DNA of 64,000 bases from Escherichia coli (GTDB lineage: Bacteria > Pseudomonadota > Gammaproteobacteria > Enterobacterales > Enterobacteriaceae). The DNA lies in assembly GCF_003334405.1 (NCBI RefSeq), contig NZ_QOWM01000001.1. One strand, written 5' to 3'. Every line of letters starts with the position of its first letter. The first letter of the stretch is position 1. Below are positions 49,045 through 54,600 of the stretch, piece after piece. The notes beneath the pieces were generated by a model. The model did no database searches. It was not told the origin of the DNA and saw nothing but the letters and a program-made list of their open reading frames with translations. Both the position numbers and the translations under genes were made by a program.

Positions 49045-50133
49045 TCACGGCAGGCGGTGGCGGGCTTGATAATAAGCCTGCCAGTGAGCTTCTTTATGTG
49101 TGGCGACACGCTGTTCGAAGTAACGGCGCAGACGAGCGCGATCTTCTTCGTTATCTTTGACGATGGTTCCGGCAATACAGTCCACCAGGTCGGCAGGCTC
49201 CCCCGCGCGATTCGCTAAAAACCAGGCGCGGACGCCCACGGCGTGGGCCACGTTCACGGCTTCAGCCGTGGACATAATCGCTGTTAGTGTATCCATTGAC
49301 GTTTTCTTTTCGCCGTTGGCACGCAGATCGCGGAAGGTGCGGACCAGTAACTCCAGTACCGCGTCAGGCACTTTATGCGGAATACCGCTATGGGCCAGCA
49401 AACGCGCCGAAGCACTGGCGACAAGCTCCAGCTCCTGGGCGAAATCCATAATCGGAAAGACAGTTTCAAAATCGAAGCGACGCTTTAGCGCAGCACTCAT
49501 TTCATTGACGCCGCGATCGCGGGTATTGGCAGTGGCAATAATATTAAAGCCTTCTCGCGCATAGAGCTGACTGGCTTCACCAGTGAGTTCCGGCACCGTC
49601 ATCACCCTGTCAGAAAGCATGCCTAACAGACAGTCTTGCACTTCCAGCGGTGTACGCGTTATCTCTTCAAAACGGACGATTTTGCCGTCGCGCATTCCCT
49701 GGTAAAGCGGGGCAGGGACCAGCGCTTCCGTTGATGGACCATGATTGATAAGCAGGGCGTAGTTCCAGCCGTACTTGATTTGATCTTCGGTAGTAGATGC
49801 GCCGCCCTGGACGGTTAACCCGGCATCGCCGCTAATAGCGGTTGCCAGTAATTCAGACAGGAGAGATTTTGCGGTGCCAGGTTCCCCCACCAACATCAAA
49901 CCGCGTCCGGTGGCAAGAGTGACTAACATACGTTCGACAGCGGAGGGACTAATCACCACTTTACGGCTAATATTTTGCGCGCTATCGCCAAGGATAAAAG
50001 CACGGGCCGCAGGCAAACTTAACTGCCAACCGGGCGGGCAAGGTGCGTTATCATTTTGTTTTAATTTTGCCAGTTCATCGGCGTATAACACAGCAGCAGG
50101 CGGACGCTGCAGATGATTATTCTGCGGTGACAT
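49045..50133 (-). CDS. yehL: MoxR-family AAA+ ATPase YehL
   Basis: ORF 49045..50199; start at Met23 (MSPQNNHLQRPP...) giving 362 aa with aggga RBS; Walker A GEPGTAKS. Confidence 0.9.
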   Translation of the reverse strand: MSPQNNHLQRPPAAVLYADELAKLKQNDNAPCPPGWQLSLPAARAFILGDSAQNISRKVVISPSAVERMLVTLATGRGLMLVGEPGTAKSLLSELLATAISGDAGLTVQGGASTTEDQIKYGWNYALLINHGPSTEALVPAPLYQGMRDGKIVRFEEITRTPLEVQDCLLGMLSDRVMTVPELTGEASQLYAREGFNIIATANTRDRGVNEMSAALKRRFDFETVFPIMDFAQELELVASASARLLAHSGIPHKVPDAVLELLVRTFRDLRANGEKKTSMDTLTAIMSTAEAVNVAHAVGVRAWFLANRAGEPADLVDCIAGTIVKDNEEDRARLRRYFEQRVATHKEAHWQAYYQARHRLP

Positions 50134-50241
50134 ATATTCATCCCTGAAATGTATTAATGAAATAAACGATATTTTACGCGCAATAAATGTTTGGCGCATT
50201 AGTTGTTTGAGCGAAAAATATCTGGAAAGCAGATCACAGTA

Positions 50242-50327
50242 AATAAAAAAACCTGCTGGTGAGGCAGGTTCTTTTATTTACTATTTTCAGGCCTAACACC
50301 ACAGCCTGTGCAACATCGTGTTCCAAC
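50242..50327 (-). ncRNA. putative Orz-type antitoxin sRNA, copy 1
   Basis: minus-strand promoter (-35 ttgcaa 50357-62, -10 tataat as plus attata 50334-39), ~85-nt transcript ending at hairpin 50250-50270 plus U-run; 5' end complementary to zor-1 5' UTR (50474-50493). Confidence 0.5.
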
Positions 50328-50565
50328 GAACGAATTATAACCATGGCTGGACCCCGTTGCAATTAAGATAATGAGATTTATAATCCAGACCGTTGGGACG
50401 TTGCGCCGGATCGAACCTATTTCAAGTCCTGGCTACCGGACGGGTGGTGCTGCAGGTGGTGCCCTGATCCGGAGTGCAACATCGTGGTCCAACATACGTA
50501 AACCAGTATCGACAGGCAGTGTAAGGGTAAGGTGCTGGTGTTGCGCTCCTTAATAAGGAGAGCGG

Positions 50566-50655
50566 ATGGACACGCTGACACAAAAGTTAACCGTGCTCAT
50601 TGCTGTACTGGAGCTATTAGTAGCTCTGTTACAGTTGATTGATTTGTTGAAGTAA
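50566..50655 (+). CDS. 29-aa Zor-like type I toxin peptide (MDTLTQKLTVLIAVLELLVALLQLIDLLK), copy 1
   Basis: SD aggag 6 nt upstream; plus promoter -35 50357-62 and -10 tataat 50379-84 gives a ~175-nt 5' UTR; terminator hairpin 50679-50701. Confidence 0.7.
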   Translation: MDTLTQKLTVLIAVLELLVALLQLIDLLK

Positions 50656-50851
50656 CGGGCAAATTGAAACGCATCTAAGGGGGAAAACCGCTTCCCCCTT
50701 TAATAAAATGATTACTGTTTTTATTAATTCATCATATAACTCATGTTTATTTATAAGTTCATCGATTTTATATTCAACGCACCATTTGACCGGGATGTGA
50801 ATATTTATGGTGGGCTATTGGCAAAAAATATCTGGAAAGTAGATCGCAGAA

Positions 50852-50935
50852 AATAAAAAAACCTGCTGGTGAGGCAGGTTCTTTTATTTACTACAGTGAC
50901 GCTAACTTGCTGATTGTGCAACATTTCGTACCAAC
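50852..50935 (-). ncRNA. putative Orz-type antitoxin sRNA, copy 2
   Basis: same architecture as copy 1 (-10 as plus attata 50942-47, -35 ttgcaa 50965-70, terminator 50860-50880); 18-nt stretch gcaacatttcgtaccaac matches zor-2 5' UTR at 17 of 18 positions. Confidence 0.5.
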
Positions 50936-51173
50936 GAATAAATTATAACCATATCCACACTCCATTGCAATTCAGTGAATGAGATTTATAATCCTGCCCG
51001 TTGGGAGGTTGTGCCGGATCGGACCAATTTTAAGTCCTGGCTGCTGGACGGGTGGTGCCGCAGGCGGTGCCCTGATCCGGAGAGCAACGTTTCGTACCAA
51101 CATACGTAAACCAGTATCGACAGGCAGTGTAAGGGTAAGGTGCTGGTGTTGCGCTCCTTAATAAGGAGAGCGG

Positions 51174-51263
51174 ATGGACACGCTGACACAAAAGTTAATC
51201 GTGCTCATTGCCGTACTGGAGTTATTAGTGGCTCTGTTACGGTTGATTGATTTGTTGAAGTAA
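51174..51263 (+). CDS. 29-aa Zor-like type I toxin peptide (MDTLTQKLIVLIAVLELLVALLRLIDLLK), copy 2
   Basis: SD aggag 6 nt upstream; -10 tataat 50987-92; terminator hairpin 51287-51309. Confidence 0.7.
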   Translation: MDTLTQKLIVLIAVLELLVALLRLIDLLK

Positions 51264-51316: not shown

Positions 51317-51637
51317 CTATTTTTCTATTTGTTGGATGAATATATTCTGTAGTTCACGATTAAAAATTGCTATTACAGTTTCAGGTGATTCACCTCGTAA
51401 TTTCCGCTCATCAATACACTCATCTCTTATATAAATCAACGCATCATTTATTAGCGGGTCAGCATCTTCTCGATCACGTTGATGAAATGTTGGATGTAGC
51501 CGGAATCGCTCCAGTCGATAGACGGAACCTGTAAATAATTCAGAGCATTTATGGATCTCAAGTCTGAAGGAAAACGGATCTTCAGGTACAGGGACCTCAT
51601 AATCGTAAATAGCAACCAGCTCTTTTTGCACGATCAT
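51317..51637 (-). CDS. yehK: protein of unknown function YehK
   Basis: 106-aa ORF 60 nt downstream of yehI on the same strand. Confidence 0.75.
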   Translation of the reverse strand: MIVQKELVAIYDYEVPVPEDPFSFRLEIHKCSELFTGSVYRLERFRLHPTFHQRDREDADPLINDALIYIRDECIDERKLRGESPETVIAIFNRELQNIFIQQIEK

Positions 51638-51697
51638 CGCTTTCCCCGCTGGTAAGTCGTGTTAATAACGGGCAGTTGCATCACTGCCCGCTGTGTT

Positions 51698-54600
51698 TTA
51701 ATGGAAAATGACGTCAGGTGCGCTTAACGCCTCACTCAAATCAAACACATCAAGTTCGGCAAAAGTGACGGATTTATTGTCACGGTACACTCGAAGAGAA
51801 CGGAAGCTCATTAGCGCTTTGCTATCAACATTGTAGTGGTTAAAACCGGGTGAAAACTTAAGGACCAGCCGGTACTCACCCAGGTCATAGACAAATGCGT
51901 CCTCATAGCCTGACTCCCAGCCTTTGTATCGCATTCCCATAAGTTGCCCAACGGTAGCGGATTTACCTTCCCAGCGAGTCAGGCTGTTACTGGTTGACTC
52001 GTCAGGTGTGAGCAGCACCGTGCGGCGCGACAACTGGCGAAAAGGCGGCATAATTTCGTAATCGGCAAAAAGCTGTGCAAATTCACTGCGCATTTCTGCT
52101 GTCATTTCTAACGGGTGGGCAATGCCAATCAGAGCATCCGCAGGAAGGTCAATGGGCTCATCCTGCGCATTGCAGAACTCCCCCTCTGCGGCCACACGAA
52201 AGGCGTTGAGTAAACGACGCGGTTCATTTGCCGGATAACCCCCCCATATTAATCGCTGGGTAACCAGGCGGGTAAAGGGATGATTAACAAACAGAGAATG
52301 AAAATCTGCCAGCGACCAGCGTCGGGTGGTACGTAGGGCAGCTTCAAGACGCGGGAGCAGGTTTTTGCTCACCTGAGTAGCATCTTTTTTTAGCCCTTTT
52401 AGTCGGGCCAGTGCCTCGGGCGCTTTCAGTTGATCGTCATCGGCACGCAACCGGGGAACACTTTTCTGGCGAACGTTTTGTTGATCAAAGATAACCGGGT
52501 TGAGGTTTTCATCGAAGCGAACGGTAAACTGCCGGGGACCAAAATCAAAAATCAACGCCTGCGGATCATCAAGACCCAGTGTTGGGACTAATCTGTCCGC
52601 TAACTCTTCCTGGCTTAGCCCGCGATTTTCTGCGACCACCTGAAGAAATTCCGCTGCGTTTTCACGTAATGAAGAGGATTTCGCCCGTTGTGATACATGA
52701 TGCAGCTGTATCAGCGCCATATCATTATTCATCAAGGTAAGTATATTCAGACCAATGACAGCACGGGCAGATTTGCCTTCTTGTGGCCAGGCGAGGATCT
52801 GTGTCGTCAGATCCCGAGCCGTGCTTTCGTCACCAAAGAGACTTAACGCCAGAAATGCCCAGTTGTCTTTTGCGGGGGCACCAGCTTGTTGCCACGCAGT
52901 GAAGAGATCCCAGGCAAAAGCGGCCAGCGTTTGTGGCTGGCAAAACGTTTTCAGTTGTTCCAGCCCGCTATAAAAACGTCCCCCCTGGGTAAAGCGCAGC
53001 ATTTCGCCGATAATTTCCAGAGCGTCATCGGTAACAGGCTGATTATTAGTGATAAGTCGAGGCCTGGACCACATTGCCGGATGCCAGAAATCAGGGGCTT
53101 TTGGAATGCGTGCCGGGTAAATGTCCATTGGACCCTGTTTCAGTAATTGTTCCAGGGCAGGCCATACATCTTTACGCTGCCAACGATTGGCTACAGTTTG
53201 TAGCAATTCGCCATGCCCATGTTCGTAAAGTAAACGCAGGGCAAGTAATGCAGCTTCGCTATTATCGCTGGATTTGGTGAAGACAAGAGGGATAAGTGCA
53301 GTAGCCGTATGTTCCGGCCAATGTAAAATCCACTGGCGAGCCAGACCACGCTGCACCGCGAAACGTCGCCAGACGCGGGCAACGGGCAGGGCCAGTTCTG
53401 TTGCGCCAAAATTTAAAATTAACGGAAATGTTTCTTTTGGACGATGTGAAAAAGCCAACATCAGACCTGGTAGCGCATCCAACCCGAGGATACTAAGAAA
53501 ATAGTCCTCACCCGCGAACAGATGTTTTTTCTCATTGATACGCAGCCAGAAGGTCAAAGCCATCTCACGCGGCAACTGTGCCAATAAATACAGGTTCCAG
53601 ACACTCTTTTCCGGACGATAACGTGAGTAGTTGTCATTTTCCCATATGTTAATTAACGCTTCTATGTGACCGCTGCGGAGCGCCTGTTCTGCTAATTGTG
53701 CTTCCGGGGAGTTCCAGCCATTCAGGATCTCTTCAACCCGCCCCTGGTAGTAATGCCACTGAACAATGAGTGAATTGCGTGCAGCATCCAGTTTTCCGGG
53801 GAGTATATAATTCAGAAACAGCCATACATCATCCCCAAAACCCAGTTCCTGTAATACAACTCGCCCACTTTTTTGTTCCATGCGTTCCGCAAGAGATTCC
53901 GTGCTGAAATAACGGGCAGACTCAGTGGAGGCAAGCCTCTCTTGTTCGCCTGGTTGCCAGTAAACTTGCGGGGTTAATTCGAGCGGTGCCAAATCAAGAC
54001 GTGGAGCTGTCATTTTTTTCTTACTACGCCACGGTGGTGAAACGAGGATTTCAGGCAGATTGCTGTTATCGGTGCCATCAATAACCGGTTTGGGCGGTGC
54101 CAATAAATAACTATTCAGTACTGCCCGGGCTTGAGTACTTAACCACTGCATCACCTCTTCTGCCAGTTGTGGCTGCGATGCCATCAGCGTTTGTAACAGC
54201 GTACGCCAGTATTCATCGCGTGCTTTTTGCTGGGCAGGCAGCTTTTTGTCTTCGATGATTGGATAACCAGGGCGGGCTGGTGGTTCTTTTAACGCCAGCA
54301 GTTCTGCCAGTGCCGCGAGCGTCGCGTGGGGGAAGTTTTTACTGTATTTAGCCACACGTTGCAGGCTGGGTTTGTTTTTATCAGCCACCAGTAGCAAGGT
54401 GTGGATGACCTGCGGATGGTTAATTTGTACCAACAGACTGCCGCAATCTTCTTTATGGGCATACATCGCGAGGCGCGGAATGGCTGCCAGTCCTTGTTCG
54501 CGCAAAAGGGCGGCGCAGGCCGCGTAGCCGAAGTGGTTTTTTTGTGACATGTAGCTGGCTTCGCGATCGCTAAATACGTCCAGGCCCCAGTATCGTTCGA

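Follow-up and report, generated by a model that had tools for sequence, protein, structure and literature searches.

Evidence for tandem Zor-Orz type I toxin-antitoxin modules with cognate-specific pairing and putative insulation between yehL and yehK of Escherichia coli

The closest described relatives of the locus analyzed here are the zorO-orzO pair and the zorP-orzP pair of Escherichia coli O157:H7 EDL933 (Fozo 2010), in which ZorO is toxic and the small RNA (sRNA) OrzO rescues the cells (Wen, Won & Fozo, NAR 42:1930, PMC3919570). In the same study the first 18 nt of OrzO were enough when grafted onto other sRNAs, the resulting chimeras repressing zorO in trans from a plasmid, and OrzP at equal expression did not rescue cells from zorO. 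Repression was lost when the V1 positions of OrzO (+9 to +11) read ACG instead of GAA, gained when those of OrzP read GAA instead of ACG, and restored for the OrzO V1 mutant by a compensatory V1 mutant of zorO, and one mismatch at V1 position 1 abolished it. For repression a contiguous run of 15 pairs or more was required, or else 17 pairs interrupted by one internal mismatch. A mutant of that study designated 6(1)11, which has the same geometry as the natural OrzP-zorP duplex, still represses. Repression is RNase III-dependent and Hfq-independent (PMC3919570). Later work gave a zorO 5' UTR of 174 nt, showed by lead probing that OrzO protects the target site, and described for zorO both a region "exposed after processing" (EAP) and a translation block (Wen et al., NAR 45:4006, PMC5397157). 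In a 2024 survey in mSystems (PMC11264685), 2,439 loci were examined and a third type (zorQ/orzQ) was defined; according to its authors 99.8% of Orz sRNAs are able to pair with the cognate zor and, in multicopy strains, a variable pairing region "may prevent crosstalk".

Several near-identical copies per genome likewise occur in the Ibs-Sib systems of E. coli, where cognate toxin mRNAs are also told apart through short variable recognition regions (PMC3919570). Sib sRNAs are antisense RNAs that overlap fully and use two recognition domains, whereas Orz sRNAs are divergently encoded and pair over 18-20 nt in one domain (PMC3919570). In tisB-istR-1 and shoB-ohsC, as in zor-orz, a divergent sRNA pairs through its 5' end far upstream of a sequestered ribosome-binding site, and a standby-type region becomes exposed only once the toxin mRNA has been processed at its 5' end. 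These two systems have no sequence homology to zor-orz and, being single-copy, raise no issue of paralog discrimination.

We analyzed a 64,000-nt stretch of an E. coli contig (NZ_QOWM01000001.1), referred to below as the window. A ~480-bp unit occurs twice in direct orientation, at a spacing of 608-610 bp. The two copies occupy positions 50245-51263 and are bounded by the leftward genes yehL (49045-50199) and yehK (51317-51637), named from matching genomes. On the minus strand each unit has a sigma-70-type promoter (TTGCAA-17-TATAAT) followed by a transcript of ~82 nt, a GC-rich hairpin and a U-run. On the plus strand each has a promoter (TTGCAA-16-TATAAT), a 174-nt leader, a Shine-Dalgarno sequence and a 29-codon hydrophobic open reading frame (ORF). 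Both minus-strand sRNA genes match the full-length Rfam model RF02083 (OrzO-P), at 50245-50320 in unit 1 (99.9 bits) and 50855-50928 in unit 2 (88.8 bits), the gathering score being 60. Comparison with O157:H7 EC4115 showed that unit 1 is of the zorP/orzP type and unit 2 of the zorO/orzO type. The features that define the Zor-Orz family were all found: an RF02083 sRNA, a divergent 29-aa hydrophobic ORF, 18-19 nt of complementarity (+85 to +102), and a site and tandem order like those of EDL933. It is thus very probable that 50245-51263 carries tandem Zor-Orz type I toxin-antitoxin modules, zorP-orzP and then zorO-orzO, with cognate-specific pairing and putative insulation. The parts, by window position, are as follows.

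50245-50327, minus strand: orzP-type antitoxin sRNA gene of unit 1, ~83 nt, RF02083 match, with promoter
50250-50270, minus strand: orzP terminator, a GC-rich hairpin followed by a U-run
50308-50327, minus strand: 5' pairing segment of OrzP, GTGCAACATCGTGTTCCAAC, sRNA +1 to +20, matching 50474-50493
50317-50319, minus strand: V1 triplet of OrzP, ACG (CGT on the plus strand), with the same triplet in the target
50334-50339, minus strand: -10 box of orz in unit 1, from the promoter scan
50357-50362, both strands: shared -35 hexamer TTGCAA of unit 1, palindromic, 10/12 promoter-scan matches per strand
50379-50384, plus strand: -10 box of zor in unit 1, from the promoter scan
50392-50565, plus strand: zorP-type mRNA 5' UTR, 174 nt, its start placed 174 nt upstream of the ATG as in the published zorO UTR (PMC5397157)
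50474-50493, plus strand: Orz target site of unit 1, GTGCAACATCGTGGTCCAAC, mRNA +83 to +102, at the 3' end of the published EAP region
50566-50655, plus strand: zor toxin ORF of unit 1, 29 aa, MDTLTQKLTVLIAVLELLVALLQLIDLLK, from the ORF list
50855-50935, minus strand: orzO-type antitoxin sRNA gene of unit 2, ~81 nt, RF02083 match, promoter from 50970 to 50942
50916-50935, minus strand: pairing segment of OrzO, with an 18-nt core, GCAACATTTCGTACCAAC, at 50918-50935, matching 51084-51101
50925-50927, minus strand: V1 triplet of OrzO, GAA (TTC on the plus strand), with the same triplet in the target
50965-50970, both strands: shared -35 hexamer TTGCAA of unit 2, palindromic, from the promoter scan
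51000-51173, plus strand: zorO-type mRNA 5' UTR, 174 nt
51084-51101, plus strand: Orz target of unit 2, GCAACGTTTCGTACCAAC, mRNA +85 to +102 (20-nt register 51082-51101)
51174-51263, plus strand: zor toxin ORF of unit 2, 29 aa, MDTLTQKLIVLIAVLELLVALLRLIDLLK, from the ORF list

The locus has the same yehL-yehK position in O157:H7 and in E. coli UMNF18. It agrees with zorO-orzO/zorP-orzP of EDL933 in this site, in the P-then-O tandem order, and in promoters, terminators, UTR length and the 29-aa ORF. The 1.2-kb locus is 100% identical to that of UMNF18 and 98.8% identical over 1.17 kb to that of O157:H7. All four pairing segments, including V1 (ACG/GAA), are identical in O157:H7, and the differences from O157 fall outside them. 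Since the principle and the exact nucleotides were established experimentally on identical O157:H7 sequences, the central observation and its interpretation are already published, and for these the window adds just another strain. The toxin peptides differ slightly from their O157 counterparts: unit-1 Zor is identical to ZorP at 27/29 residues (T3 and Q23 here, S3 and R23 there; 50572 and 50633), and unit-2 Zor to ZorO at 28/29 (I9 here, T9 there; 51199). For residue 23, R23L Zor has been reported non-toxic and R23E toxic (PMC9860968); R23Q and T9I are absent among the Zor variants reported in that study. The zor ORFs and orz sRNAs carry no annotation in the RefSeq records of O157:H7 EC4115 and UMNF18 (L001 and L002), where the 1.2-kb yehL-yehK interval looks empty.

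One palindromic TTGCAA per unit (50357-50362; 50965-50970) serves as the -35 element of both the orz and the zor promoter. With a single shared hexamer the toxin and antitoxin promoters overlap fully at -35 and might compete for RNA polymerase. We found no remark on this hexamer in the main text of the 2024 survey (PMC11264685). Weak Rfam hits to the Thr leader, the Trp leader and STnc370 overlapped the Orz terminator hairpins, scored far below the gathering scores and were treated as chance. A PtaRNA1-like hit on the plus strand at 51625-51698 (27.5 bits, gathering score 47, E = 0.007), covering the yehK start and the yehK-yehI gap, is probably also chance and corresponds to a terminator-like hairpin.

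The 5' end of OrzP was placed at 50327 from the position of the -10 box and the published V1 numbering (+9 to +11 = ACG). With V1 at +9 to +11 (PMC3919570), the Orz 5' ends fall at 50327 and 50935, and the complementary segment therefore lies inside the sRNA. Orz transcription starts had been mapped before the work of Wen, Won & Fozo (PMC3919570). The RF02083 model starts at 50320 and 50928, 7 nt downstream of the Orz 5' end given in the experimental papers, and so leaves GUUGGAA/GUUGGUA of the pairing segment out of the model. If 50320 were the real 5' end, 13 pairing nucleotides would be left, below the 15 needed.

Because the sRNA is read from the opposite strand, a direct repeat in the DNA amounts to complementarity between the RNAs. 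A preliminary description of this DNA had counted matches of 19/20 between 50308-50327 and 50474-50493 and of 17/18 between the equivalent segments of unit 2, and our recount returned the same figures, the unit-2 segments lying at 50918-50935 and 51084-51101. It had further held that the units differ in the middle of the segment (atcgtg versus atttcg) in a manner that preserves cognate pairing. The difference is real and corresponds to sRNA +9 to +11, ACG in unit 1 and GAA in unit 2, and the differences between the units are altered identically on the sRNA side and on the UTR side. We found a fourth coordinated difference that the preliminary description did not contain, at sRNA +6 (A in unit 1, U in unit 2); all four differences, at +6 and +9 to +11, are thus changed alike on both sides. 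The single non-matching position of unit 1 is a true G-A mismatch, mRNA G+96 (50487) standing opposite sRNA A+7 (50321), which gives 13 bp, the mismatch and 6 bp. In unit 2 it is a G·U wobble, mRNA G+90 (51089) with sRNA U+13 (50923), so that the OrzO-zorO duplex has 18 contiguous pairs. Over the 18-nt core the cognate combinations pair at 17-18 positions and the cross combinations at 14-15, with runs of at most 8.

With up to 3 mismatches allowed, a search of the 64 kb with each sRNA-side segment returned the segment itself and the UTR site of the same unit and nothing else; the UTR site of the other unit differs by more than 3 mismatches. When the window was shuffled with dinucleotide content preserved, the mean numbers of matches were 0.01 and 0.11, and 2 matches were reached in 0/100 shuffles. 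Divergence between the units is concentrated in the target, with 7/20 differing positions there versus 9/154 in the remaining leader (p = 5e-4).

The two segments of each unit are direct repeats ~166 bp apart that flank the shared promoter region. The 20-mer repeat could accordingly be read as a DNA-level element, such as a pair of protein-binding sites, with the complementarity to the sRNA incidental. We regard such an element as extremely improbable. Chimeras carrying only the 18-nt 5' end of OrzO repress zorO in trans and compensatory mutations restore repression (PMC3919570), OrzO protects the site in lead probing (PMC5397157), and transitions between the repeat copies are mostly of the kind that preserves a G·U wobble in RNA, which a DNA-binding model does not predict. 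Base pairing between the sRNA and the toxin leader is the reading that we retain.

Each cognate duplex also keeps a characteristic imperfection, a mismatch at sRNA +7 in the P and Q classes and a G·U wobble at +13 in the O class. The P and O imperfections (50321/50487; 50923/51089) are identical in Escherichia whittamii. The internal mismatch at +7 or the G·U at +13 may tune duplex strength or RNase III cleavage.

Duplex prediction for the four sRNA/UTR combinations favored the cognate pairs by ~6-15 kcal/mol in every energy treatment. For the site-only duplex the values were -34.0/-31.3 kcal/mol for the cognate pairs, -18.9 for OrzP-zorO and -24.4 for OrzO-zorP. Cofold binding free energies with the full-length leader were -16.6/-17.2 (cognate), -6.0 (OrzP-zorO) and -11.3 kcal/mol (OrzO-zorP), and with the 28-nt-processed leader -23.4/-22.6, -9.2 and -14.1 kcal/mol in the same order. 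Summing duplex energy and opening costs gave -13.9/-12.6, -0.4 and -4.0 kcal/mol for the full-length mRNA and -18.9/-19.1, -6.9 and -9.0 kcal/mol for the processed mRNA. The claim that each sRNA copy pairs better with its own toxin leader than with the other is therefore backed both by these energies and by the experiments of PMC3919570 on identical pairing segments. Duplex folding of the whole sRNA against the whole UTR was discarded: it ignores intramolecular structure, and its over-extended, unphysical duplexes (-53 to -62 kcal/mol) were replaced by the site-limited, cofold and accessibility-corrected sums.

In all models OrzO-zorP was the leakier cross pair. Non-cognate sRNAs, notably OrzO on zorP, could then still bind and repress, which would make the locus a partly redundant network instead of two switches. 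Predicted energies of the OrzO-zorP duplex remain at -21 to -24 kcal/mol, a stretch of 9 contiguous pairs lies on the mRNA 5' side of the site, and cofold binding stands at -11.3 and -14.1 kcal/mol. In the literature searched, no published assay of OrzO against zorP came up, nor one of OrzP against zorP. We nevertheless judge partial insulation of this kind to be unlikely. OrzO-zorP has 14/18 positions paired and a longest run of 7, where the published rule asks for 15 or more contiguous pairs, or for 17 with a single mismatch; OrzP on zorO, with comparable pairing (15/18), failed completely; and one mismatch at V1 position 1 abolished repression (PMC3919570). Two separate cognate switches are the reading that we carry forward, and on the energies and the pairing rule OrzO would likewise fail on zorP, so that failure of the non-cognate sRNA is predicted in both directions.

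Without the first 28 nt of the leader, opening the target is predicted to cost 4-6 kcal/mol instead of ~10.5 (5.7 instead of 10.6 in unit 1), and this modeled drop agrees with the published "exposed after processing" behavior. The zor mRNA begins with ~14 nt (GUUGGGACGUUGCG) that resemble the 5' end of Orz; the full-length fold is predicted to pair them with the Orz target's conserved GCAAC flank, at the following positions.

50392-50405 with 50475-50493, plus strand: predicted pairing of the zor mRNA 5' end with the target, unit 1
51000-51012 with 51084-51097, plus strand: predicted pairing of the zor mRNA 5' end with the target, unit 2

In unit 1 the 5' end also pairs with the CCAAC flank and leaves most of the variable middle unpaired; in unit 2 the pairing runs on into the variable middle. 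The predicted pairing between 5' end and flank fits the published opening of the site upon removal of 28 nt. For unit 1 the fold suggests that the target flanks are under a three-way constraint and that the middle is freer to diverge.

From these data and the published work the following mechanism can be proposed. In each copy an sRNA of ~82 nt would be transcribed divergently from the gene of a 29-aa membrane toxin, and its first 18-20 nt would pair with positions +83/85 to +102 of the 174-nt toxin leader. [quoted passage not shown] Owing to the coordinated changes at sRNA +9 to +11 and +6, a near-complete duplex would form only with the adjoining leader, and the cross pairs, with 14-15 paired positions and runs of at most 8, would stay below the published repression threshold.

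Natural variation was surveyed in 40 loci, comprising E. whittamii, 18 metagenome contigs and 21 E. coli genome loci, a small and phylogenetically non-independent sample. An exact 24-nt scan of species-representative genomes gave E. whittamii alone and the same scan of metagenomes gave the 18 contigs; with an exact scan of this kind, other Escherichia species were probably missed. Apart from minor variants, the pairing modules of the 40 loci belong to one of three main classes, P, O or Q. The zorQ-orzQ type (PMC11264685) has the same architecture and a pairing module that differs in the middle of the 20-mer with covariation of sRNA and target: ATGGCATCT on the sRNA side and ATGGCGACT in the target replace the P or O core. 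The Q class is absent from the window and occurs in P-Q, O-Q, P-O-Q and P-Q-Q arrays of other genomes.

Across six distinct cognate alleles 95% of cells were paired, versus 28-39% in slid registers, and compensatory double changes were found at 5/20 pairs. In an allele-by-allele duplex matrix six of the seven cognate alleles had predicted energies of -30 to -34 kcal/mol, the O2 variant reaching -25.8. Cross pairs among P, O and Q ranged from -15.7 to -23.1 kcal/mol, and all of them fall short of the published pairing rule. Class-fixed columns, constant inside a class and different from one class to another, are strongly enriched in the target within the zor transcript, 8/20 versus 3/244 elsewhere (Fisher p = 3.5e-8). 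Over the whole unit such columns gather in two places, the Orz 5' half (50288-50323) and the target (50475-50489), and the 40-locus alignment has none between 50490 and the stop codon. The pattern fits specificity modules that are maintained against a homogenized background. The P-O array recurs in E. whittamii with no change in the pairing segments, and the classes, even with their small imperfections, therefore predate that species split. In the available parts of the survey PMC11264685 we found no report of nine-way orthogonality, of a module-restricted class structure or of rewired arrays.

Two-unit and three-unit arrays in the sample were P-O (8), P-Q (5), O-Q (3) and P-O-Q (L038), and single-copy genomes carry any of the classes. 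The three toxin peptides of the P-O-Q array (L038, E. coli NT1F10) are identical. In E. coli 2014C-3307 (L040) the array is P-Q-Q, with two same-class units that both code for an A20S ZorQ peptide. The rule that no array contains the same class twice, obeyed by 16 two-unit loci, was refuted by this array. A three-unit locus of 1.8 kb was present in a single piece in fifteen genomes. In unit 1 of E. coli JNE23-001 (L039, NZ_AP045064.1, a complete genome) and at positions 1-760 of a metagenome contig (L015), OrzP adjoins a zor leader with a Q-type target, and in both OrzQ is encoded further downstream. The rewired toxin copy would there be under a non-adjacent sRNA, with OrzP orphaned. As the contig came from a co-assembly it was considered as an assembly chimera, an explanation that was rejected on the grounds that the complete genome has the same OrzP/Q-target arrangement.

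These arrays bear on why the classes differ at all. Insulation could be a by-product: each pair would keep its own complementarity, and the modules would have drifted apart after duplication through compensatory changes, the orthogonality itself being unselected. Same-class duplication (P-Q-Q in L040) and arrays with a non-cognate neighbor (L039, L015) speak for that account, as do the occurrence of any class in single-copy genomes and the orphan OrzP, without any toxin, that is common and widespread in K-12-type strains (L029; PMC11264685). On the other hand, class-fixed differences are sharply confined to the pairing modules and absent from the downstream 170 nt (the rest of the UTR and the ORF), a confinement expected if recombination homogenizes the units except where specificity is kept, and E. 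coli and E. whittamii share identical P and O segments, which are hence conserved, not drifting. We consider an unselected origin doubtful, and we infer that the divergence is maintained by selection for insulation. The earlier suggestion of selection for two insulated pairs stands as plausible and matches the view expressed in PMC11264685. Same-class arrays and wiring to a non-neighboring sRNA indicate that insulation is usual and not obligatory.

As a tentative generalization, which we hold to be possible and somewhat less than an even bet, the array could consist of at least three mutually orthogonal RNA "addresses" (P, O and Q), often for the same toxin peptide, shaped by homogenizing recombination, class-specific modules and occasional gene conversion. 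Recombination would even out the toxin gene together with the greater part of the leader, with each unit's two short pairing modules staying class-specific. Occasional gene conversion of whole modules would yield the rewired arrays, in which a toxin is under a distant and not the adjacent sRNA. The locus is a natural case in which a small number of coordinated base changes keeps duplicated RNA-regulated toxin-antitoxin modules free of crosstalk, and as such is useful for understanding paralog insulation and for designing orthogonal sRNA regulators.

Two of the metagenome contigs (L005 and L019) hold more divergent zor-orz units that encode MDTLTQRLTVLITVLELLVALLRLIDLLK and carry further pairing alleles. 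In L005 a 1-nt indel distinguishes the sRNA side from the target, yet the predicted bulged duplex still reaches -30.2 kcal/mol.
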